A DNA stretch of 62,938 nt, counting the filler, from Rhabdomonas costata (Eukaryota): the NCBI GenBank assembly GCA_019059605.1. It is 48 parts of 48 records of this genome, joined end to end, with 100 filler letters (N's around TTAATTAATTAA, not from the genome) between each part and the next. Parts side by side here need not be neighbours in the genome. Positions count along the whole stretch, not along the records: positions 42,038 to 43,250 come from JAHMHO010023400.1; 47 more parts are not named here. One strand, written 5' to 3'. A program made the position numbers and the translations under genes. Below, piece by piece: positions 12,500 through 50,600 of this stretch (its first letter is position 1; the number at the start of each line of letters is the position of its first letter). The notes under the pieces were generated by a model. It was not told the origin of the DNA and made no database searches. It saw nothing but the letters and a program-made list of their open reading frames with translations.

Positions 12500-13035
12500 T
12501 TCTCCACAGCGTATATCAACGCGCATCGCTCATCCTTGTCTTTGATGTTGAGGTTCATCTTCTTCTCCATAACTATGTCCAGGAGAATCCGGAACATCCC
12601 CACGCGGCCGAACTGGATGGAATACATGAGCGTAGTCTTGCCGTGGGCGTCCGCGATGCCGATGTCCGCCTGGGCCTCCAGGAGCGTCTTGAAGGCATCT
12701 TCCAGGCCGGTCATAATGGTGTGAATCAAGGGGGTCCTGCCCTCCTTGTCCGCCACGTTGACCTTGACGGGGAAGGTCGTCCTGGACATGAGGTCGTTGA
12801 ACACCACCACGACGCCCCTCTCAATGGCATGGACCACCGGGGTCTTCCCGTCATCGTCCTGAGCATTCGGGTCAACCGCACCTTTCACCAAAACATGGAT
12901 GCCCCTCTCGTCGTTGATGCGCAGCAGCGGAATCAGGGACAGGGCGTTGTGGAAGGGTTTCATGGCCAGCTCCTCCATCCCTTGCCGAGCCTCCTGCTCC
13001 GTCACTTCGTGCAATTCAAAGACCTTTTTCGATGC
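12500..13035 (-). CDS. Ankyrin-repeat protein exon (at least 4 repeats; 5' truncated)
   Basis: DPNAQDDDGKTPVVHA, VNVADKEGRTPLIHT, ADAHGKTTLMYS, LNIKDKDERCALIYA. GTGCGG donor. Confidence 0.9.
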
Positions 13036-13161
13036 ACACCCACACAACCAAACAACNNNNNNNNNNNNNNNNNNNNNNNNNNNNNNNNNNNNNNNNNNNN
13101 TTAATTAATTAANNNNNNNNNNNNNNNNNNNNNNNNNNNNNNNNNNNNNNNNNNNNTTTTT

Positions 13162-14468: not shown

Positions 14469-15071
14469 TTTGTTTTTGCGGTCTTCCCTCCACCGACTTA
14501 TGTCCTCCAGGCCATCCTTGATAGCTGCCACAAGCAGCACGAAGCAGAGTGGCATGATCGTGGTGACGGGGCTGACCGGGGTCACACTGGGAAACAAGCT
14601 GACAATCATGTTCAGCAAAAAGTAGAAGTTGGACAGCCTCCGAAACTGCTCAAAGAGGTTCAGCGGTAGGAACGTGTAGACAGTGTACTTAGTGGTACTA
14701 ATGTAGTTTGTCGGAAACCTTCGTTTGTTGTCCTCTTGTGAATTTACAGTGAAGGTGATGGGAGCTGCCGGGAGGGTGGTTGGAGTCAAGGGCGGGTTCG
14801 GAGGAGGCTCACTCATGGGGACGTTAATGGTGGGTCTGGGGCATTCCGGCGAGGAAGTTTGATCTCCCTGAGTCGACGCGTGTTCCCCCTGAGTCGAACA
14901 GCTGTTGTTCAAATGCTCCGGCGCTCCGGGCAAGGCTGAGGGGGGCGCTCCGGGGAGAACCCCTGAGGAGGACACCCCACGCGGGTACACGTCTTCGGGA
15001 GGGATGATGGGACGAGAAATGCCCTCCGTGCTTCCATTGTTGGTCATAAACGGGGGAACAGGAGGATCCAT
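14469..15071 (-). CDS. P4-type ATPase (phospholipid flippase), N-terminus
   Basis: [35 protein letters not shown]...[26 protein letters not shown] is the diagnostic P4-ATPase N-terminal motif. ATG at 15071 follows a pyrimidine-rich AG. Confidence 0.95.
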
Positions 15072-16057
15072 GGAGACACACAAAAAAAAGAGTGAACAAT
15101 GTAGATATTGACAAACTCTGCAGCCAGAAAAGAGTTTGGAGGTGGTCTTCCCTCTACGGAAGCATTCCCTGCGGACACCCGGGGCAAATGCCAACTATGA
15201 ACACAACTGGGTGATTTTGAATTCGGGGAATTATCCAGCTGAAAACCCCACCAAAGCTTCGCCTGGAGACAAGAGAAGCAAAAGAACAACACTTCAGCGT
15301 GTGGCTCTTGAAACCCGACCGAAGTCCGAGATTCTAAGCAAATCACCCTTAGCTCAGAGAAACACTGCCGAGGGCCCTGCCTTGGGCGGGCTAAGTCTAT
15401 CGCCCCCCGCCTGCAGGGATATTTTAGCTCACCAAGGTCTTTCAAAACGCGATGGTGAACACCATCAGCATTTCGGGTCACCATCGCGTTTTAATCACTA
15501 TTATCTTCTTTTAATACCCAAATGCCAAATCTTTTGGGCATCGCAGAAGAAAAGCCACCACTTGCCTTCACTCTCGCGTGCTAATAACGCCAAAAGACTG
15601 CCGAAACTCTGCCTTGACCGGTCCCGCCCCCATGGGGGCAGGATCCTGGGGAACCGCATACTCACAATGTTCCAACCCAACNNNNNNNNNNNNNNNNNNN
15701 NNNNNNNNNNNNNNNNNNNNNNNNNTTAATTAATTAANNNNNNNNNNNNNNNNNNNNNNNNNNNNNNNNNNNNNNNNNNNNGGTTGTTTTCTTGCAGGCT
15801 TTGTCTGTAGTTTTTATTGCTGGTGGAGTGGATTAAGTAAGTTTAGGTCGCTATATTAATCAGGACTGGGCACCTGTGCCCTGGGGCTGATTAATATAGC
15901 GACCTAAACTTACTTAATCCACTCCACCAGCAATAAAAACTACAGACAAAGCCTGCAAGAAAATATCTGCGCCAGAAGAATACCCAAGACTTCAATCATT
16001 GAAAACGAAAAAGGCACATTTCCCGGTCCATCTCAACGTCACAACATCACGCAAGAC

Positions 16058-33620: not shown

Positions 33621-34291
33621 TGACGGCCCGGAGGCAGAAGAGCCCGCGCCCTCAGCGCCAGAGGTTAGTTCGGGGCCGTGGGTGACTGGAGGTCGCCCGG
33701 CCCAGCGGTGTGCTTGGAGCCCGCCGTTCCCGCCATTGGGGAATGGGACCGAGAGAGGAGTGGTCCGTCCCATGCTGCGCCTGGTGCCGACAATGACGAA
33801 ACTGGTGGTGGCGGAAGAGGAGGAGGAAGCGGAAGCGGAGACCGTGAGCGGTCGGTAAAGAGCGAGGAAGGCCGAGGCTGGGGGAGGAGGCAGTAAGTGC
33901 GTGGCGCGGAGTGGAAGGTAGTCCGGAGCCATCTACAAGGACCGCCTGGGAGACGAGGGCGGCGCAAAGGCACTTGACACGTTCCTCACAGGTGTGGTAT
34001 GGTGGAGGAGGGGCGTCCTTGCGCGGGCGCTTGGTGCTCGCCAGGACGCCCCACCACCCNNNNNNNNNNNNNNNNNNNNNNNNNNNNNNNNNNNNNNNNN
34101 NNNTTAATTAATTAANNNNNNNNNNNNNNNNNNNNNNNNNNNNNNNNNNNNNNNNNNNNGTGTTGGCTGTGTTTGGGGTTTTGTGGGGATGGATTGTCAT
34201 CCTTTCGACCAGGTTGACCAGGTGATGAGCCAGCGCATTCTACCGCCTCGCACCTGGCGGCACCATTTAGGACAAAACGCAATGCGCACAC

Positions 34292-34363
34292 CGTGCGAGT
34301 CACGATCTGCTCCACAGGGACTGGCACCTGCACGGGCTCCGGGATCACCACATCGTAGGGCAC
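34292..34363 (-). CDS. Articulin-like (VPV repeat) pellicle protein exon
   Basis: 72-bp phase-0 exon VPYDVVIPEPVQVPVPVEQIVTRT between cag and GTGTGC. VPVPVE repeats typify euglenid articulins. Confidence 0.7.
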
Positions 34364-34888
34364 CTGAGCCCCAACGAAAACAGAGGGGACAAAAACCACA
34401 AGACCCGAAGGATCATTATTCCACTGCTTTTTGGTCCTCCTCCCTTCACTTTCGAAACGCCACAGAAGGAGGAGCCGGGGGTGTCGATGAAGGTCTTTAT
34501 GTTTTTCTGCTAGCAATCCTAAAAGCAGGTGGTCGAGCATCACTTTCAACTTTTCAGGACTATTCATTGTTCAAGAACCCCTTTTTACATTTCTCTCAGC
34601 TTCCTATGTCCAGGTGCCATTACATGTGGTTTACGTTGGCTGCCTTGTATTTAGCATGGATTCCTTTCTTTGGGACGAATGTGGACCTGTTGCAATACTG
34701 CGCCCGCTTCGTTGTCTTTTCTTTCTATTCTGTGGGTCATTCCAGTTTCATTACAGTTTGGCTCTTTGCTTCTCCCGTACCTGACAAACAGTGGCGCAGC
34801 TTTACCTCAGTGCAGCTGTTCGTCCGCAGTCCTTCTCTGCGGAATGCATGCATGCACTACCCTAGCACCCTGCAATTTTTGTGGCAGG

Positions 34889-35026
34889 CACTGATCCAGA
34901 AGAGGATTCTGTGGGTTTCCGTCCCTGTGCACAAGATCCCCGAGAAGTTCCTCAACGTGGACTGCACCCCGACCCACTTTCATATGGATACCCGTGGTTG
35001 GACCACGAACCTCGAGATTCACCGTG
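34889..35026 (+). CDS. Probable exon of unknown protein (possibly CS/p23-like beta domain)
   Basis: ggcag acceptor, then GC3-rich ALIQKRILWVSVPVHKIPEKFLNVDCTPTHFHMDTRGWTTNLEIHR, then a GT donor. Confidence 0.4.
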
Positions 35027-38000
35027 GTATGCTGCTGCTTTTCATTGTCTTGCGGATGCTGCCTCTGATTATGCGTTTGTTTTATTACGTTTGCAGCTGT
35101 ATTGAAGGTGCACCCCGTAGCCTAAGAGGTCTTTCAGAGTGCAAGCCTTTCACTTCTCAGCATCCCGTACACTTTCCATTGTGGTCAGTGTCTTGCAGTG
35201 AGTAAGGTTTCCGTTTTTATAGGTGGTCTATGTGTGTTATGTGGATCGTTCAAAACCCTGATCCTGTGTATGCTGAGCCGTCTGCTGAAATTGTATTGCG
35301 CCTTTTGGGGGTCAGAGTACATCGACGGGATTCGGGTTTTGAACGATCCACATAACACACATAGACCACCCCNNNNNNNNNNNNNNNNNNNNNNNNNNNN
35401 NNNNNNNNNNNNNNNNTTAATTAATTAANNNNNNNNNNNNNNNNNNNNNNNNNNNNNNNNNNNNNNNNNNNNGGTTGTGTGGAACCTCAGGCTTTGTCGA
35501 GTAGACCGCTTGGGCTTCCTTCTCGGAGCCGAAGGTCAGGCCTACCTCCATAAGACGGCCAAGCTGGACCGTCTCCGTGGCCGTGGGGAACACCTCCTTG
35601 GCCAGACGCGTGACCAGCGACGGGATGTCACCGTGCAGCCGCAGCGTCGTGGGCACTGCGATTTTGGGGGTTTTAAGAGAATGGATGGGTGGATGGATGG
35701 ATGGATGGATGGATTGCGGTGCCGAACATGCAGTTTTCCGGAAATTACAAGAAACAACGCCAGCACGGAAAATGAAGAGCAGTAACCGATCAGCAACGTT
35801 GACCCTTTTTGCACCAAATTGGGATCCTTCCCTGTTGGCTTTTTTTTACGGTTTCCACTGAAACCGTCGGAATCACAACCCACACAAAGAACCATTGTGA
35901 GGAAGGCAACTCTGGAGCAGGCAACAGTGAGAGAAATGCAGTACCGAGAACTTTTTCAACACAAACATGCATAAAATTAAGGCCAGCAATAAAGCCGGAG
36001 GGAACCAGCGCGTCGAGCAAAGTTAGTCCTGCCTCAGGATACCTCCCTTTTGTGCTGTTATTTTGCGGTGGTTTCTACTGACCGGCCCTCAGCTCTGGCA
36101 TTACAATGCGCGCGCAGAACAGTTTTTGGCAAAGTCATCTCTTGGACAGCCAACACTGAAAGGAGGGCAGTGGTCGCAAGGGCAGTACATCGAAAATATG
36201 GGATAGTGAGATGGCTAGGCCCAAGCAGGCCTGGGGGTCTATTATATGCACGGCAGCACTTCCGAAGTGCTGCCTGGCCGGTTCTTGGGGTCAGCATTTC
36301 CTGACCATTCCCTTTGAAGTACGAGTTAGTGGTGGCGATGACAGCTTTGAATGACTCGTTTTGGTGGGTAGACACGAGAATTGCACCGAACTGCTTACCT
36401 GACACTGACATGAAAATACATTTTTTGTGAGCGAGTTTTGGTGTGTTGCAGAGGCATCACCAAGTCCAAGTCGGGCAGAGCTCTTGTCTAGCAACTGGAT
36501 GAGTGCCTCGGCCAGAAATGGTGCCCCTTGGCGGCTTCGTATCGTGTATCCCTACTGTGCCACTTTTTGCCCCACGCAGCTGCGAGTTGACGACAGCATC
36601 CACCAATGTATTTCCAGAAAAAAACCCACGAGCACTTGTGGCCGCGTACCGCCCGTGTTGAGCAGCCGGACGTCCACCCCTGCGANNNNNNNNNNNNNNN
36701 NNNNNNNNNNNNNNNNNNNNNNNNNNNNNTTAATTAATTAANNNNNNNNNNNNNNNNNNNNNNNNNNNNNNNNNNNNNNNNNNNNTGTGGGTTGGGTCCC
36801 ACTTCTTGAGTGCAGGGATCCCCAAACTTTGGTCCGTAATTTTTTTATCAAGACCATTCGGAATTTTCAGATTCAAAGAAAACGGACCAAAGTTTGGGGA
36901 TCCCTGCACTCAAGAAGTGGGACCCTGCCCACCCATAGTTTCAAGCCCTCCGGCACCATCCTTCAATTTATTCATTCAGGGATACCGCAGATATGAGCCC
37001 CGTTTCGACTCCAAGTGCCCCGAACTTGCGGAGTACTCCGATAAGCTGCTGCATTTGGCTGATACTGTGGGATTACGGTTCCAGCTTGGGGCGGGAAAAG
37101 GTCTGCTGCCTACACTCACTTATACACACACAGACGCAAGGCGGACCATTGAGTTTCGCAAGAAATCAGAGCCGTTACGCTAACACCAACGGGAATCCAA
37201 AGCACTCGCAGACGCACCAGGGCAAAGAGTCAGTGAGGCAACCCCGAGGTACAGGAGGTTCGGCGGAAGAGGGCAGAAATGGCCCGCAGCGCAGCTATAC
37301 GGCGATGTGCTGGGGCGACAATGCCTGTAGATAACGCTGCCCGTTCACCCATCCGAAAGAAAAGCTCCAAGGGTCGTTCCCGCGAGAAAAGGCCCCAGCC
37401 CCCTTAGAAAGGAGTGCAGAGTCTCAGAGACCTAAGCAGCAATGGCAATGGAGCAATGCAGGTAGCCGCTGGAAAAGGACAGCTGCGCGACAGAAGCCCG
37501 GGACCCGTGGGGCAGAAAGGAGGTTACCAGATGTGGAACGTTCGGCGGTGAGCGGGTTCCGGTTCCCCACGTCACCGTTCGCTCTAAGGGCACCTCTCGC
37601 GAGCACCCGTGGTCAACAGCGCGCAATGCACCCGTGAGTCCACAGTGGTCACCGAGCAACCAGCCAACCAGGCAACAGCCAGCGCGCAATGCGCTCCCCC
37701 CCCCCACGCCTCACATACATCTGCACTAAATTTACTCCAGTGGTCCACGGGCATCGCTCACTTCCCAATGGCCAAGTTCTATCCTGGGTCCCGACGTCAC
37801 TGCTTGTGCGCATCTCGGATATTCATTTTTTGTATTTTTTATTCTCTTCCCTTCTTAATTTCACCAGGCCAGCGGGCACATGCTGGAATGAGCGGCGTGG
37901 GATTTTGGCGTTAGGGCTGCCTACGAGACTGGAATATGCACTGCATGCGACGGGTTCACAGATGCGGGACATTTCCAGTCTCGTAGGCACCCCCACACNN

Positions 38001-40605: not shown

Positions 40606-40959
40606 TTTGTCCCCCCCCCACACCNNNNNNNNNNNNNNNNNNNNNNNNNNNNNNNNNNNNNNNNNNNNTTAATTAATTAANNNNNNNNNNNNNNNNNNNN
40701 NNNNNNNNNNNNNNNNNNNNNNNNTTGTGTGGGGAAGTTCTCGATGACATCACTGCTCCTAATGGGTTGGATTGAAAAATTACGAAGGTAGGTATTGATA
40801 GGAAAACGGCAGTGTGAGTTATTAGATAGCTTGACCTGGTATCAGTTTTGTACAGGTTGGCTGCGTTATTCTAATTAGCACTGTTTTTGTGTTGAGGCAC
40901 TGTTTTGTGCCCTTACAAACAGCCTAGCTTTGCTGATAACCCCCACACCCCGCCAAAAA

Positions 40960-41861
40960 GAGAGACGGTGGCCACCGTGGTGGCGCGAATAAAGACCGCG
41001 CCGCCGGAGCAGAAGCTTCCGGTGTGGTACCTAGTGGACAGCATTCTGAAGCGTCTTGGGGGGGAGTTCGTGGTGCATCTGGAGCCTCACCTATGCGCCT
41101 TGGCGCAGCTGCACATGCCCTGCGAGGTCGAACACGCCCCGATCCGTGTGTGTGGTTGTATGATGCTGGATAGCTGGTGCTCCAGGCCTCTCTTTGTCTG
41201 CTCAGCTGCGGCTGGACATGGACCTTTTTGAATGAATTGACGATTTTTTGCGAGTCTATGCTGTTTCCGGGTATCACATGTTCTTCTTGGGGTGATCGTG
41301 GGACGTGGGAGGTGTGGGAGATTATTTGGAAATTACTTGTTTCTTGCCTAGTATTGGCTTTCTTTGTCTCTTTTGAGATGGCGGTGTATTCGAGCAAACT
41401 ATATTGGCCTTCAACCTTAAGATCTTAACGTAAAGTGGAACTTCGTGTGCTTTTCAACTTCCAAAGCGAGTATTTTCATGGGGCGTGCACGCGTAATTCT
41501 GTGTGAATTAACAACAAACAGCGAACGAGGACACGGCGAGTGCACAGGAGAAAAAATTTCGTCTGGTTTTTCCCTGCTGTCGAACTATGTCTCTAATGGC
41601 TATGGTTTCTAAATAAAAGGAGCTCCAGTGTACTGGCTAAGTTGAAGCGGAAACGCTCGTTTTGCGTTTTTCTTTGCTTGCTTCTCCGGGGCCACAGCTG
41701 GTGCTGTATCATTTTATTTTATTTACTTCATTTTATCCCTGTTCTGTCTTCGCATGCTTCAGAGCCCATCACTGGGTGCTAAGTTCAGTGAGATGATTGC
41801 CACCTGGGAGCCCGCCCTTGCAGTGGAAACGTTCCAGAGCTTGAGGGAAATATTTGAGCAG
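40960..41861 (+). CDS. CID (RNA Pol II CTD-interacting) domain protein, Pcf11-like, exons about 40960-41126 and 41763-41861
   Basis: VARIKTAPPEQKLPVWYLVDSILKRLGGEFV matches Pcf11 CID KLP..YL.DSI.K..G..Y. The next exon carries MIATW. Confidence 0.8.
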
Positions 41862-42037
41862 GTTTATCTTCAGATTTTTGTGAGATTTTCTCGTGAAGAT
41901 GAGGGTCTCATCTTCACGAGAAAATCTCACAAAAACCNNNNNNNNNNNNNNNNNNNNNNNNNNNNNNNNNNNNNNNNNNNNTTAATTAATTAANNNNNNN
42001 NNNNNNNNNNNNNNNNNNNNNNNNNNNNNNNNNNNNN

Positions 42038-42905
42038 GTTTGTTATATTTATAATATCTAATTCTTTTTTTTGAGAATCATAACGTAATATATTTATATT
42101 TACATCTAATAATAAACTAAGTATTGATATGTCTGTATCTGGACTATATATTGCATATGAATTTAATTTATATTTATTTAATGATTTAATGTGATCAAAT
42201 ATTTTTTTTCTCCTTCATTTGGTACATATTGATCTGAACAAATATATGTTTTTAGATTTTTACATATTTTCTTTAAATTATTCACAAAAGATACAGATGT
42301 TAAATAAGTTGTTAACAAATCCATAAAATCAGTAGATGGTGATATATTTACTTTAAAACTATCTGAATCAAATTTATATTTTTCATATAAATATCTATTT
42401 TCATCTGTTTTAATATTTTCTTTATATTTAACTAATAAATAATGTTTTAATTCACTTATGAATGTACCCATATAACGACGTTTTTGTTGTTGTATCATTT
42501 TAGATTTTGAAGGTACACCGTCTATAGATATATAAATAAGATGAATATCATTAACAACAAAACATTTTATAATAGTATTCATAATATATGAAAGTATTTC
42601 AAGAATAATAATTTTATTACAATCAAGTAAAATAAAATTTTTAATTGATGCTGTATTTTTTTTGTAAGATTATATTTTTTAAAAATAAGAGTTGTTTCAG
42701 TATCTATATTATCCGAAATAATATGAAATAAAGCATAATTTAATTCAGATAAAACAACAGAACTGATATCATGAATAATAGAATTAAAATCAAAATAAAT
42801 ATGTGAGATAGAAAGTAAAGAAGAAGAAGATAAAGATTTTGTAAATGGATCAATTAAATTGATAGAACTTTTTCTAATACTATTAAAAAATTGTTCAATT
42901 CCCAT
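42038..42905 (-). CDS. XRN-family 5'-3' exonuclease of giant-virus type, frameshifted twice (error or pseudogene), 3' truncated
   Basis: Across three frames: MGIEQFF, YFDFNSIIH, ISIDGVPSKSKMIQQQKRRY, ISPSTDFM, SD...PNEGEKKI, IYSPDTDI.ILSL are the XRN_N motifs in order. Intronless and extremely AT-rich. Confidence 0.85.
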
Positions 42906-42989
42906 TGACTAAATTTGATATACATATATATAAAAAAGTTTAAAAATTATTAAAATAAAAATTATGTTGTAATATAATATATTAAACTA

Positions 42990-43250
42990 ATGGAATATTC
43001 TCAAAAACCAGGAGGTTTAGGTAATGCTATGAGAGCTATGACAGATAAGGTACAATCAACAGTATCAAGTACTGCAAAAGCTGCTTTATCAAGTTTAAAA
43101 GATAAGGCAAGTTCTGCAGCACAACAACTTACTAAACCACAAGGACAAGTACAAGCACCAGTTCAACAAGTACAAGCACCAGTACAACAAGCACCAGTAC
43201 AACAAGCACCAGTACAAGCTCCAGTACAACAAGCACCAGCCCACAAACCC
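42990..43250 (+). CDS. Hypothetical protein with (Q)QAPV repeats, divergent from the XRN gene, 3' truncated
   Basis: ATG after an 84-bp AT-rich intergenic region. A/T-ending codons and tandem caagcaccagta repeats. Confidence 0.75.
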
Positions 43251-43919
43251 NNNNNNNNNNNNNNNNNNNNNNNNNNNNNNNNNNNNNNNNNNNNTTAATT
43301 AATTAANNNNNNNNNNNNNNNNNNNNNNNNNNNNNNNNNNNNNNNNNNNNCCCACCGCAACGGACTCTGCCACCGCGGAGGCCGTCGAGCAGGCCTCCCC
43401 CTCAGAGGCCAACGGGTCGGGAGACGGGATAGTGGCTGCAGGGACGTCAGAAGAGGTGTGGGCTTCCAGGCGGACGGTTGAGGGAAGGGAAGGGGCGGGG
43501 AGCGCAGGCTGGGAAAGGCTCAGGAAAAGCTGCAGGAGTTCCCACTTCGATTCCAGAGAGGCGCACAGCGCTGGGGTGCGGCCGTGGAGATCCTGACGTG
43601 GGCATCAGAAGGAAAGAGGGTCAGAAAAACAGAGATATTCAGCCAACACCCGATACTATACGCAGGCGACGCGCTGCAATGGGATCGGTGTGCGGAAGGA
43701 ATGCAGGCAGTCACTCCCAAGCAATCTCACTGTGATCAACCCTTTGCGCAAGGCCCCAGCCTCTTCCCGAGCCCAGTCTGCGTCTTTCCACTGCAATACA
43801 CTGTCTTCCGTGATGATGACTAAGCTCACTTCAGATTGCGGCGGGTGGATTCCGGTGCAGAGGCTTTCAAAAACACCATTCTGCTGTGAGAGCTGTGAGC
43901 ATTTAGCACCGCGGTGCAC

Positions 43920-44018
43920 CTGAAGGTTCAGATTCGCGCCTGCCTTGGCCAGGGCTCTCAAGGCCTCTACATTGCCGCATTGCACGGCGCAGTGCGCTGG
44001 AGTCCTCCCCTCGGAGTC
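43920..44018 (-). CDS. Single ankyrin-repeat exon (99 bp, phase 0-0)
   Basis: DSEGRTPAHCAVQCGNVEALRALAKAGANLNLQ between ttcag and GTGCAC. Confidence 0.88.
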
Positions 44019-46564
44019 CTGAACACAGAAAAAACATAACCGCCTGTCCAATGAGCCAGAAAAAAGCGCTTAGGGTGCGGGCGCAGCTCTAAAAGACTCG
44101 CGAAGTCAACCGCATTTCACGTTTTATTTCAGGGTAAAACGCCACAGCGTACCCTCACAGCGTCTCCGGATAATTTGTTGGCTCTCTGAGGGAAGGCGCC
44201 TTTACGACCGGTTTGCATTTTTCGGGGGTTTTCCCTACATGTTTCCGTACTTCCAAGACTGAATATCTCTGTAGTGCTATGAACGCACCCACCCTCTTGA
44301 AGACCTTTCTGCAGCGAAGAAGCTTTTATTTAAAGGGACGCGGTTCCTCCGCAAAGTTACTACCTCCCCCCCCTACACACAGACAAAAGACAGGAATTTT
44401 CCGAGTTGAGGGCGGTGAAGGGTTCTAGCAAAGGCCTTTGGAGAGGAATGCTAAGGGCCAAGGAATCCTAAGGGCAATGTTTCCGACTTTCAAATCGAGC
44501 TTTTGCTCTGGTCCCTTTGTGACTTTTCGGCTGAAAGGCAATTTTGGGCCGGCGTGCTTCATTNNNNNNNNNNNNNNNNNNNNNNNNNNNNNNNNNNNNN
44601 NNNNNNNTTAATTAATTAANNNNNNNNNNNNNNNNNNNNNNNNNNNNNNNNNNNNNNNNNNNNTGTTTGTTTGCAAAGGCTCTGAAACGCATGTCCCGGC
44701 CGCCAACCGCGGAGGCAGTTCGAGCCGGCCTGGACAACGTCGGTCACGCAGTCCTCAGGCTTAAGATATGTAGCTCGCACGCATTACTACACTTCATCTA
44801 CCTCCATCCTCAGGTCTCTTCACGCTCATCACCGCCCACTTCTCGCCGTTTTTTCAGAGCCTTTGTAAACAACAGCTTCTCTTCCATCACACACGTGGCA
44901 GTAGGCAGCTACAACATTTCTCATTCACAAGACGCAAACAAAAGTTCGCCTCATCTGTGATCTGCGCTCCTTAAACGCCCACTTCCACACACCTTTTGCA
45001 GAGCCCCACAAATTCCGATTGTTGTAGTGAATAGAGGGAATGACGATGGCTGAATTGTGTCCGCTCCGTTTAAATTGGTCTTTCGTTGACTGGAGCAGAA
45101 TTCATAAATTTTCGATTGTACCGGTTGTCCCCGCCTTTGTATTGCCAATTATTTTAGCACTTTGTTGTTTTTGATTATTTGTATGCTGGTCAAGTGAAGC
45201 GATTTGACTTTTCGTGTGCGAAACAGAAGTTTGCAAAGCAAAAATTAAATTATTGCCATACGAAAAATATGAAACCATCGGAAAGAAATAAGGTCGATTT
45301 ACCCCTTGAAGAATTGGGAAGTATGGAAAATTTGAAAGTTATTTTTATAATTCCGGTCTGGTCTTTGGACGAGAAGTCAAAGCAAGTCTTGGTTGCTGGT
45401 GGCTAACAATGTGTGACTCCACTACTATGTCCGCATTTTTTCGTCATCTCATTCGTTTTCTTCAACAGGTGTCATGTCCCTTCGATCGTGTCAGCAAAAC
45501 ACAACCTGCACAAGTACAACTGCCGTGAAAAATATGCCGTCGTGTTTGCCCCGGGTTTCTACAAGGAGAGACGCAAAAGAAAAAATTCGCCCATTCCCGA
45601 AAACGTCTGTCCCCAAAAAAAACACCTCGTGCTCTCCCTCTGATTACATTTGGAGAAAATGTAAAATGTGGGGTATTCCAAGCGAAGATATGGGCCCTGT
45701 GAGTTCACCACGTGTCGATTGGAGCGGCCAATGATCGCTGAAGCTCAACCCATCCGCGAAACGCGTAGCACCTAGCCACTGCTGAGCACGAGAATGCCTT
45801 GCGAAGGGCAGGAGGCGTGTAATTCACTGCACTCCCGAATGGTAGAACGCCGAACACGGAGAAATCAACACAAAACNNNNNNNNNNNNNNNNNNNNNNNN
45901 NNNNNNNNNNNNNNNNNNNNTTAATTAATTAANNNNNNNNNNNNNNNNNNNNNNNNNNNNNNNNNNNNNNNNNNNNTTGTGGTTTGAGGTATTTTTCTCC
46001 TCCAATGTTAACATCCACCGAAACTCTTTTTGTAACGGTGGATGTTAACATTGGAGGAGAAAAATACCTCAAAGCAAAAACAAAACTTCCCAGAGATCAG
46101 GGTACATATAGTTCCGAAATTTTTTTCTAAAAATTGAGTAGATGGATTGATTTATTGTCACAACAGTTACAATGGTGGATTGATATTATGAAAGTAAAGA
46201 ATTTCTAGGTAGTACGGTCTAACGTCAGTAAATGTTAGGATACTTACGGCAAGTGGCTAAAAATGAAAATAGCGTATGGTTACTCATCACAAAATACACG
46301 CTAAAATATTTGGTGTTTTGCATCCTTTTATTTCTTTTCGTTTCCGTGCTTATGCATGACGAATTAACTTAAGTCTCCCTTTCCCAACACCTGTGGTTAA
46401 GGGGGGTGTTTTTTTTGCCCCGTTTTCCCTTTGCAGGCGTTGGAATGGTTTTAGCTTGTTCTAGTTCTTTCCGCGGTGAGTATCTTGTCGGTTGTTGATG
46501 TTATGGTTGTAACGTGGCATGTGAAGGAGTCGTAAAAGAGACAGTTTGAAGTTCCCATTGCAAC

Positions 46565-46720
46565 CCCTGACAATGAGTTCAACGCTCTTCCACTACCGCT
46601 ACGTGAGAGACCAAAAGCATAAAGAGGGTGACGCTGTGACCCTGTGAAGCTGACGAAAGGAATGGGTTGACAGCGCAACGGAGAGTCTTAAGCCCGTCTT
46701 AAGCGTCTTTAAACGTACGG
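46565..46720 (-). pseudogene. Possible decayed tyrosine recombinase C-terminus (DIRS/Crypton-like element)
   Basis: LSTHSFRQ...(other frame LYAFGLS)...R*WKS resembles HSFR.G.A..L...G....GRWKS. Stops and a frameshift are present. Confidence 0.3.
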
Positions 46721-49700
46721 AGGCCCAAGAATCCGAGGCCGGTTCCGAGGATGTAGCTTGAAGGGCATCAGCCCGCCATAAGCTGCGGAGTGGCGTTTTC
46801 GGGAGCGGAACCCCAAAGATAGTCCAGAGTTGGCGTGGTCGGGTCCAAACGGGTCCAGCACAACCTCAGAGGCGCCAAGACAGCTGTCAAAAACGTTAGC
46901 GGCAGCCGTCACCTTAGCACTGCATAGCCCGGCCCACAAGGGTGCCCAGAATCTTCACCCCGGAAGCCCTAGGAACCCTCGGCCTGGAGAAGGCGACCTG
47001 GCGTAACCAAAACCTCTGCCCCGTCCACCGAAGTTCCCTCGCCTCTTCCATGATCGCCTCTTCCATGGAAGGACCTCCCATCTGGTGAAAGTGTCCTCCC
47101 GGCGTTAATGCGACTGCGGTGTGGCGGTAATCACACTTCTCGCTGGAACTGCATAAGCAGGCGGCCGAGAAGTGTGATTACCACCCCACNNNNNNNNNNN
47201 NNNNNNNNNNNNNNNNNNNNNNNNNNNNNNNNNTTAATTAATTAANNNNNNNNNNNNNNNNNNNNNNNNNNNNNNNNNNNNNNNNNNNNGGGGTTTTGGG
47301 ATAATAAAAATGCCTGGTATTCAGGCTCAGGCCACCCTTTGTAGGATGAAACGTAGCTGAGGTAATTTTAGCTTCTCCTTGACATAGCACGCACCATGTA
47401 GGGTGCTTATAGCGCTTGGACCACTGTCATCTTCGTCCACCTCGGAGCTTCTGGGCACTGTAATATGGGTGCCCATGGTGGTCTCTCAACGTGTGGTATT
47501 CATTATATGGACTTTGCAGTCTATTATTTTATGACTGGAAGAAGACTTCACTCTCAGGTATCAGTCCTCATCTATCAAGGTCTCGCTGCAATTCGTGTAG
47601 GTTGCTGTTGCTCAGGTAGCCTGAGCACACCTATATATTCGCACGCCTCCTTACGTTCTGAAATTGTTTTGTTTGATTTTGCGGTTTCCCGTTGTGTACT
47701 GGAATATTCTTGTGAATGTTCTTGTTTGTTTGGATATTTATTTGCGCGGCAACATTTGTTCCCGGCCTGTGGTTTTAGTGAATGCTTGCGCGTGTCCCAT
47801 TAGCTATTTCAGTTTCAGTTTCAGTTTCAATCCACTTGTCAAAGTAATTCCCGGAACCGAAAGCCGCTGGAAAGGTTGCGCAATGTTTTCCGTTGGACTG
47901 TATTCATCAGGAGTGTCATTATGGACTTGGCTTGAACTATATGGGCTCTCGCGCGCGAATGTGGTAAGAGGGCCTATGCTGTTCCACAAGTCGCATCCGC
48001 ATCCGCGTCCGCGTTGGGCCCTATGCGTCACCGGTGGGCCGTCTCCTTCCTGCAGCCACCGCGAGTCAGAACACAATCATTTTCCATTGGGCATTTCCCC
48101 TCCGTTTTGTGGGTGTAATACAGCGTGCATAGCTTGCATGTTCCTCCTCTTTCAGCTTGTTTTCTCACCATGTCTGGTTTTGGTTGAAAGTGGAAATGGC
48201 CGCTGGGTTTCGATGGGAATCCAGCTTACTGTCCTTCGCCACTCGCGGTGTGCCGGTGGAGGCGGCTTTGTTGTGGTGGTGGCAGAGAGGGTGGGTCTGC
48301 ATCCCCCCCCCCCCCTCTGCTGGGATGCACAGGATGCACAGGGGGGGGGCGTCCTCTAACGGGTGTTAGACGTTAAACACACGTTCTCCCTGGGATTCCA
48401 ACAGAATCTTTGCAGGGGTTAGGAAGGTGACACACATGTCCCCTGGGATTCCAACAGAAGGGTTGCGTGTTACACGGGTGTTAGACGTCTGACACCCCAC
48501 CCNNNNNNNNNNNNNNNNNNNNNNNNNNNNNNNNNNNNNNNNNNNNTTAATTAATTAANNNNNNNNNNNNNNNNNNNNNNNNNNNNNNNNNNNNNNNNNN
48601 NNGTGGTGGGTGTGTTTGGGTGGGTTTTTTTCTTACGGCTTCAGTGGAGATTTAAGACTTGCCCCTGTTTATTATAGAATTAGATAGTACGCTCACCGTC
48701 AACACAGAACCCCGACACACAACTTGCCTGTGACCATCTAACCTATGCATTTCCCCACATCTCACACCCCCTCCTCAGACATTGCTTGGAATTGCACTGC
48801 ACCATCATTGCATCGCCCACATTTGGAAAAGCAGAAAAAACGTTGGGGCACGTTGTTGTTGATCAGCACCAGTAGTAACCGCGCCAAAAGTCGTAGACAC
48901 TTTCCGAAACGACTCCAGGTACCACAAAAAACCTTCCCCAATCGGAAGAAAGAAAGAAAGGTTCTCTTCAGGAAGATGCAGGAAGAGAGTAGTCAGAGTG
49001 TACCCGCAGGAAAAAGTTCCGTCTCCACATCCTACACTCCTCAGAACAAGATTTGTGTATTTCCAAAAAGGCTGGAAAAAAACGACAATGTTGTTAAGTG
49101 GCCTTTCCGACAAAGCACACTGTCACTAACCACACCCTTTGCTCCCATCTGCTCGCAACATCGTACCTCGCCATAAAGCCCCACAGGGAACACCGAGCTC
49201 TGGTTTTGGTGGGAGTAGACCATAAGGTAGGAGGGGTCGGCCACCTTTTCAAACACCCAGCCGGCAAAGAAAATAGGAAACCCGCGACTGACCACGCGGT
49301 GTGGGGCACAAGTTTCAGTGAAAGCACAGTTCTTCCGGGTTATGGCTGAGGATCAGCCATTTTCCGACACATACACAATACACACTACTGGCACACTACT
49401 GGCATCGATACACCCTGCCCTGGTCGAATGGCATAGGCACAAGCTGCGGCCCTCCATCCTTTTTATTTTAAGTCTTGGCTGGTAGTCTAAAGTCCCAATG
49501 CGGAACGCTCCGGTAAGGCACTGACAGCCACAACAGGAGACCCGGCGAGACCCGGAGTGAGTTGAGAGACGGGAGGTTCAAAGGCATCTGCCCTTCTGAG
49601 CAGTGAAACATGGACCCAAGTGGTCCCAAGTGGTAAATGCCTACAGTGTTAACAAAAAACCGCGTGAATTACTTTTTGAAACGCTGGAAGGGGTTACACA

Positions 49701-50019
49701 ACTGACGCCAGCACCCTCAAAATGATTCGATTTGATGCAAGGGGGGTCAGAATTCCTGCATGAGTATTTTTTATTAGCAACCCAAAGGCTAAGGATAACC
49801 CGTTGCTGTGATATGNNNNNNNNNNNNNNNNNNNNNNNNNNNNNNNNNNNNNNNNNNNNTTAATTAATTAANNNNNNNNNNNNNNNNNNNNNNNNNNNNN
49901 NNNNNNNNNNNNNNNTGTGTGGTTTACTATTCCTCCAAAGTGCCAGCTTATTACAGGGTATCCCACGAAGCGCGATACTCTGTAATAAGCTGGCACTTTG
50001 GAGGAATAGTAAACCATAA

Positions 50020-50600
50020 GATCTGGAATGATAACCTTCAACAACGTCTGGAGCCTGTTAGTTTCATTCAGCAACTGCTGTTCCTTCACTCCAATGGAAC
50101 TCAGCGAATCCAACAGCGCTCTCAGCTCAACTGCTGTGGCTAGAAACGACTCTGCATTGATCTCTGTAGGGACTGCGCTTTCTCCTCAGAAACGCCTTAG
50201 TCTGGAAATATGATGATGGGTATTCAAACCATTCAACACTATAAAACGCCTCTCAACCTCGTACTTGATCTGTGGAGGAAGATAGAGACTAACCAACGCA
50301 AAGCCTCCCAATACTCTTCATCCTTAGTTCTGGGTATCTCCCTCTGGAAGTGGTCTGCTGTACTTCCCCTTTACCATTGGGTCTGAATCTGGAACTGTGG
50401 GTTGTTTTGGCTTCGCAAACACTTCGCTGGGTACTGAGATGGGCGATTTAGAGGGTCCGGCATGTGAAACTGTGGAAGAAGTGGCTGGTGATGTTGCTCC
50501 ACACCCTGGTCCACCCGTCTGCCTGGCTTCCTTTCCACCACTTCCCCAACACCAACTTACCTCTTCGTGGTCGCAAACCACTACAGTCCGAGTCTTCTCA
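50020..50600 (-). mobile_element. Possible decayed LTR-retrotransposon gag/protease remnant
   Basis: ELRALLDSLSS (aspartic-protease-like) lies downstream of CWGSGGK (degenerate Zn knuckle). Many stops. Confidence 0.3.

Follow-up and report, generated by a model that had tools for sequence, protein, structure and literature searches.

The question raised by this locus is whether a single, extremely AT-rich contig, assembled together with DNA of the eukaryote Rhabdomonas costata, belongs to that organism or to a giant virus. The window, by which we mean the whole stretch of 62,938 bases that was analysed, comprises 48 contigs of 1209 to 1238 bp each, ordered by size and joined via artificial spacers of 100 bases (an N run, TTAATTAATTAA and a second N run); adjacency in the window does not amount to adjacency in the genome. 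Positions 42038 to 43250 hold a separate contig of 1213 bp, with artificial spacers at its sides (41938-42037 and 43251-43350) and with genes cut at both ends. Its GC content is 0.232, compared to 0.462 to 0.610 for the other 47 contigs (mean 0.521, SD 0.031), which corresponds to a z-score of −9.2, and no other contig among the 48 is low in GC. The abrupt drop from about 50% to about 20% GC that the first-pass annotation had pointed out is thereby borne out. In our interpretation, the contig is very probably a fragment of a giant-virus genome (Nucleocytoviricota, most likely related to Imitervirales/Mimiviridae) that was assembled with eukaryotic DNA of about 52% GC. It carries the first ~290 codons of a viral-type XRN exonuclease and, on the opposite strand and 84 bp apart, the beginning of what is probably a lineage-specific repeat protein.

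The companion contigs are eukaryotic, as seen from the N-terminal domain of a P4-ATPase (E = 1.3e-25), ankyrin repeats and a weak CID domain. Eukaryotic gene fragments with a GC3 of about 0.65 are found at 14469-15194 (−), 12094-13056 (−), 43659-44069 (−) and 40896-41228 (+). Rfam gave no match over the whole window. Four of the 48 contigs bear near-terminal palindromes with arms of 29 to 38 nt, located at the 3' end of 34160-35372 and 40725-41937 and at the 5' end of 45977-47189 and 49916-51128; they are absent from the AT-rich contig and look like an artefact of assembly or library, for example hairpin or chimeric ends.

Translation of the AT-rich contig in three frames revealed an XRN-type exonuclease on the minus strand, distributed over three pieces. 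Segment 1 (42664-42905) starts at 42905 with MGIEQFF and contains FDFNSIIH with the first catalytic Asp, equivalent to D35; it covers positions 1-49 of the Pfam domain XRN_N (PF03159, 241 positions) with E = 7.7e-5. Segment 2 (42210-42655) contains the stretch ISIDGVPSKSKMIQQQKRRY, which holds the second catalytic Asp and the K/Q/R/R residues of the 5'-phosphate pocket, as well as EGEKK, and corresponds to XRN_N positions 67-196 (E = 2e-16). Segment 3 (42038-42201), with two catalytic Asp in YSPDTD, aligns with positions 193-240 (E = 7.4e-3). All three pieces match the domain in collinear order, with 22.7, 60.6 and 16.2 bits for segments 1, 2 and 3, respectively, at a cut-off of 22.9, and none of them contains a stop in the three-frame translation. 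The motifs that had initially been read as FNSIIH, GEKKI and YSPD.D are present as FDFNSIIH, as EGEKK followed by I past the frame change, and as YSPDTD. The reading frame leaves the contig at residue ~290, so that the N-terminal part is present and about 500 of the ~790 residues expected from the length of the relatives are missing.

The two frame changes on the minus strand were located by the three-frame translation and a list of homopolymer runs. The first, at 42656-42663, and the second, at 42202-42209, each lie within an 8-base homopolymer run. The contig contains three runs of this length, two of which coincide with the frame changes; the third (42065-42072) is not associated with a break. 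The absence of introns holds insofar as the three XRN pieces abut, parted by these two frame changes.

As had been noticed at first, the contig carries two divergent genes 84 bp apart: the XRN gene starts at 42905 (−) and a second open reading frame, ORF2, at 42990 (+). The region between them (42906-42989) has a GC content of 9.5% and presumably carries the promoters of both genes. ORF2 (42990-43250, +) spans 87 codons and is open at the contig end; an N-terminal part rich in Ala, Ser and Lys is followed by Q-A-P-V repeats, and the QAPVQ repeats go back to a tandem repeat in the DNA (43136-43246, +) with periods of 12, 15, 21 and 27. Nothing in Pfam scored above the cut-off for ORF2 (best match 13 bits versus 28.4), tblastn against the 81 related loci described below retrieved no relative but low-complexity matches at E = 0.58, and none of 79 pattern matches in IMG/VR was confirmed as a relative. 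ORF2 is probably a lineage-specific repeat protein and probably disordered. Having no relatives in the 81 loci or in IMG/VR, it adds no viral signal beyond its codon bias.

This codon bias is informative on the unity of the contig. The GC content differs between its parts (19.1% in the XRN gene, 9.5% in the intergenic region and 41.4% in ORF2), and the 41% of ORF2 suggested a chimera of host and viral DNA. The chimera was ruled out by the third codon positions: GC3 is 8.1% in ORF2, which matches the XRN gene with 6.2 to 7.4% in its pieces, compared to 64 to 66% in the three Pfam-supported host ORFs of the window. The higher overall GC of ORF2 is due to its Ala/Pro/Gln/Val-rich repeats, which stem from the tandem repeat. 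Since the XRN gene and ORF2 have an equally low GC3, we consider the contig to be one foreign piece derived from one extremely AT-biased genome. It is AT-rich, intron-free and closely packed (GC 0.232, GC3 0.06-0.08, spacer of 84 bp).

To find relatives of the XRN fragment, 5.8 billion clusters were queried with segment 2 (163 aa) in a word-indexed search. Nine matches were obtained, the best of which, P0001-P0003, are proteins of 787 to 795 aa that scored 144-151 bits and share 52-55% identity with the window XRN over the matched part (54-55% over 85% of the query); for the nearest ~790-residue metagenomic proteins overall, identity is 49-55%. All are metagenomic and come from contigs of up to 73 kb. 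An exhaustive phmmer search of 1.84 billion representatives yielded 354 matches at E ≤ 1e-3, of which 147 reached E ≤ 1e-10; the best 150 of the 354 are mostly about 700 to 870 aa long. No relative more than 55% identical to the window XRN was present in the roughly 15 billion public proteins searched, and environmental metagenomes are the source of all its closest relatives. An identity of 45-55% to P0001-P0003 indicates that the window XRN derives from an unsampled lineage.

Among solved structures, the best phmmer match in the entire PDB was Rat1/XRN2 of S. pombe (3fqd) with 35.5 bits and E = 1.1e-7; XRN1 scored lower. The gap between this score and the 144-151 bits of the viral type bears on the alternative that the contig is nuclear DNA of an AT-rich eukaryote present as a contaminant, in which case the gene would be that organism's own cellular XRN. 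AT-rich eukaryotes do exist and eukaryotes all encode XRN_N proteins, but the solved XRN2 and XRN1 chains did not exceed 35.5 bits. A neighbouring divergent gene at a distance of merely 84 bp and the lack of any detectable intron also speak against a nuclear gene.

The same alternative was confronted with the residues of the active site, for which the window was aligned with human, Drosophila and fission-yeast XRN1. At the motif columns these three enzymes read DMNGI(I/V/L)H, GEGEHKI and GLDAD, whereas the window has DFNS, EGEKKI and SPD.D; the columns DFNS(I), EGEKKI and SPD.D are invariant across the eight viral-type sequences of alignment A1. Some tens of residues are inserted between the first two catalytic Asp in the window, P0001, P0004 and L029 but not in XRN1, and L064 shows only a few additional ones at this site. 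Both the invariant motifs and the insert argue against a cellular XRN. The catalytic equipment itself is common to the window, XRN2/Rat1 (PDB 3fqd) and XRN1/Pacman (PDB 2y35), in that the Pfam XRN_N domain, the six acidic residues covered by the contig and the K/Q/R/R pocket are alike, although the overall similarity to these enzymes is weak (at most 35.5 bits) and the window is placed outside the XRN1 clade. The domain architecture of the relatives differs as well; in its complete form the viral type consists of XRN_N and XRN_M and measures about 700-930 aa. Of eight close relatives listed, six combine XRN_N with XRN_M and two (P0003 and P0004) have XRN_N only. The C-terminal domains of XRN1 (PF18332, PF18334 and PF18129) occur in none of these eight, in contrast to the listed long XRN1-type proteins, all of which except P0401 possess them.

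For phylogenetic analysis, the three window pieces were joined with an X at each break and the first 330 to 360 residues were aligned. A careful maximum-likelihood tree (LG+C20+F+G4) was calculated from 61 rows and 324 columns. In addition to the window, the rows comprised 16 proteins of ~790 aa, 27 translated IMG/VR loci, seven members of a ~600-aa family and ten cellular XRN1 from animals, fungi, oomycetes, a brown alga, Blastocystis and an opisthokont protist. The window, all sequences from viral contigs and the ~790-aa proteins form a clade of 44 rows (100/100), set apart by a branch length of about 1.1 changes per site. The XRN1 rows constitute a clade of their own (100/100), as does the ~600-aa family (93/93). 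Within the viral-type clade, the window belongs to a subset of 17 rows (99/96, starred) together with the giant-virus loci L001 and L002, both named GVMAG, and the sister group of this subset consists of six loci taken from large records, two of which bear capsid genes (23 rows, 96/85, starred). The rows nearest to the window, P0001-P0003 and P0019 (89/96, not starred), share 45% identity with it across 273 columns. An earlier quick tree of 95 rows was in agreement with the 61-row tree; P0351, a fusion with non-XRN sequence over its first 360 residues that was misplaced in the quick tree on a branch of 5.21, was excluded from the later trees, for which 61 of the 95 rows were selected.

The phylogeny of the frame-corrected XRN, which had been proposed as a check, thus speaks against a grouping with cellular XRN: for XRN1 by the tree (100/100), and for XRN2 by the score gap only. 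In the tree the window is contrasted with XRN1 and the ~600-aa family, which leaves some room for a cellular XRN of the XRN2 type. With the window inside the 100/100 viral-type clade, and in view of the scores, motifs, insert and gene spacing given above, we regard the nuclear gene of a contaminating eukaryote as highly improbable and retain the giant-virus origin. The XRN tree further suggests Imitervirales as the viral lineage of the contig, one gene fragment not being able to classify a virus. The 1213-bp contig itself contains none of the hallmark giant-virus genes for capsid, PolB, A32 and VLTF3.

The gene type is also found in viral records. An IMG/VR scan with an alignment of eight ~790-aa proteins as query confirmed a viral-type XRN at 64 loci, 41 of which are named GVMAG (giant-virus MAG) and 23 of which lie on other viral contigs; the contigs reach 1.26 Mb. 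The best tblastn segments among the IMG/VR loci showed 35-36% identity to P0001 as query, and a scan of JGI metagenomes returned 17 loci with at best 40-41% identity to the window piece. P0001 as single query gave 18 pattern matches in IMG/VR, none of which was confirmed, and a 26-nt probe from the start of the XRN gene matched no stretch of IMG/VR. The NCLDV major capsid protein (PF04451) was detected above its curated cut-off in both of the two large XRN-bearing records searched and in none of 14 control genomes. Finally, in the ESM Atlas the three clusters that lie closest to P0001 consist of Viruses to 96-100%, with Nucleocytoviricota as the commonest group. The view of the first-pass annotation that this is a giant-virus rather than a cellular XRN is therefore upheld by the search, the tree, the 64 IMG/VR loci (41 of them GVMAG) and the capsids in two of two records.

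The 81 related loci are AT-rich without exception (GC 0.163-0.340, median 0.234), and three annotated ones are 80-88% coding and contain photolyase, ankyrin, AP endonuclease, SF1 helicase and sugar epimerase genes. The AT-rich, gene-dense setting is common to the window and to the ~790-aa giant-virus XRN type, as are the 100/100 clade, the motifs DFNSI, EGEKKI and SPD.D and the insert after the first catalytic Asp found in the window, P0001, P0004 and L029. The window differs from this type in its identity of 45-55% to its nearest members P0001-P0003, in that the gene is limited to its first third and spread over three frames, and in its neighbour gene ORF2, which has a counterpart in none of the 81 related loci.

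The upstream regions of the related XRN genes were compared with respect to AAAATTGA, a promoter motif typical of Mimivirus. Of 43 related loci, 9 have an exact copy no further than 120 nt ahead of XRN. Four of them (L011, L020, L028 and L029), which belong to the clade that is sister to the 17-row subset of the window, have it 56 to 75 nt upstream of the XRN start. No exact copy was found in the 84-bp spacer of the window, which is uninformative for the window. Downstream of XRN, at a distance of 0.4 to 2.4 kb, two loci encode a class I-type DNA photolyase (PF00875 and PF03441, E = 1e-72; L001:9556-10932 and L003:4552-5931). The pairing of photolyase and XRN in L001 and L003 may represent a conserved neighbourhood.

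If the contig is of giant-virus origin, its relation to the eukaryote has to be considered. With a length of 1.2 kb it is too short to tell whether the virus infected the organism, was eaten by it or is built into it; infection, ingestion, integration and unrelated carry-over are all possible. The two frame changes bear on one of these alternatives, namely that the contig represents an endogenous giant-virus element in the chromosomes of the eukaryote, a decaying copy in which the frame changes would be real inactivating mutations. There is precedent for such elements: excerpts from PMC4083422 describe integrated exoribonuclease genes of NCLDV type in Selaginella, with eight copies that were judged viral in origin. 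The double interruption of the XRN gene and its co-assembly with host DNA in the same size class would fit an insertion of this kind. Both breaks, however, occur at two of the three eight-base runs, which is also the pattern of run-length miscalls, no stops are present besides these two homopolymer sites, and 10 of 10 testable functional residues are kept. Moreover, the contig shows no host junction, as both of its ends lie within AT-rich genes, and no compositional shift towards the host (GC3 0.06-0.08 versus 0.64-0.66), which is mildly against an old insertion. Overall we consider an endogenous element unlikely.

That both breaks lie in homopolymer runs while the gene is intact elsewhere favours a miscall. 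Judged from the assembled sequence, the frame changes are considerably more likely to be run-length errors of the assembly than signs of decay, although real slippage mutations give the same pattern of homopolymer breaks. On a bolder reading, the frame changes in long A-runs would be real and would be tolerated via slippage during transcription. Slippage of this kind at A-runs has been reported for the AT-rich genomes of endosymbionts.

Another alternative is a viral contig unrelated to the sequenced organism, which would then derive from a free particle, from a virus whose host was some other organism of the culture or sample, or from carry-over between libraries. This would agree with its being the sole low-GC contig among the 48 of the window, with the high fragmentation of the assembly and the artefact-like terminal palindromes on four of the 48 contigs, and with closest relatives that all come from environmental metagenomes. 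No result speaks directly against such an unrelated virus, and we regard it as a real possibility, while on balance not expecting it. That the contig is the tip of an unsampled Imitervirales lineage truly infecting, or endogenised in, this eukaryote is possible but somewhat doubtful, and we put it forward tentatively. If so, it would establish a new pair of giant virus and host.

As to the function of the encoded enzyme, excerpts from PMC5499597 list D35, D86, E176, E178, D206, D208 and D292 as the metal-binding acidic residues of XRN1 and describe a basic 5'-phosphate pocket. The window conserves the equivalents of six of the seven acidic residues (D35, D86, E176, E178, D206 and D208), D292 lying beyond the contig end. 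The pocket residues K93, Q97, R100 and R101 are likewise kept, by the window as well as by each of the eight sequences compared. Given the conserved acidic site and K/Q/R/R pocket, the enzyme is predicted to work in the same way as cellular XRN; to judge from these residues, it is probably a metal-dependent, 5'-monophosphate-dependent, processive 5'-3' exoribonuclease.

A biological role can be proposed by analogy with the poxviruses. According to excerpts from PMC8478210, decapping by the poxvirus enzymes D9 and D10 and 5'-3' decay by host Xrn1 lead to faster mRNA turnover and less dsRNA, and L375 of Mimivirus is a Nudix decapping enzyme. Poxviruses thus use the Xrn1 of their host, whereas the giant-virus type encodes its own XRN. 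By this analogy, with which Mimivirus L375 fits, the viral XRN would degrade decapped or cleaved RNA, both viral and host mRNA, in the infected cell; it could thereby hasten the turnover of mRNA from one temporal gene class to the next and limit dsRNA. Excerpts from PMC5499597 state that the function of viral XRN homologues is not known, and no enzymatic assay of any viral XRN was found in the literature searched.

Giant-virus fragments in eukaryotic assemblies and XRN genes in NCLDV are both already known; the XRN of this contig is new and divergent. As hosts are known for few giant viruses, any assembly in which viral DNA turns up offers a starting point for finding a virus-host pair or an endogenous viral element. 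The contig at 42038-43250 offers one, and it adds a new, divergent member to the sequences of the viral XRN type. As a 1.2-kb fragment with neither junction nor hallmark gene, it shows only that giant-virus DNA was present in the sample. It is flagged here as non-host and should stay out of the annotated gene set of the organism.

The searches also brought up a second large metagenomic family of XRN proteins (P0009 and P0166-P0284). These proteins of about 600 aa are short and AT-rich, like the viral type, consist of XRN_N and XRN_M and are encoded on contigs of up to 457 kb. They have an SPDAD motif and keep GEGEHK, and their group (93/93) is apart from the clade of the window. One member of the family, P0246, is fused to ubiquitin.
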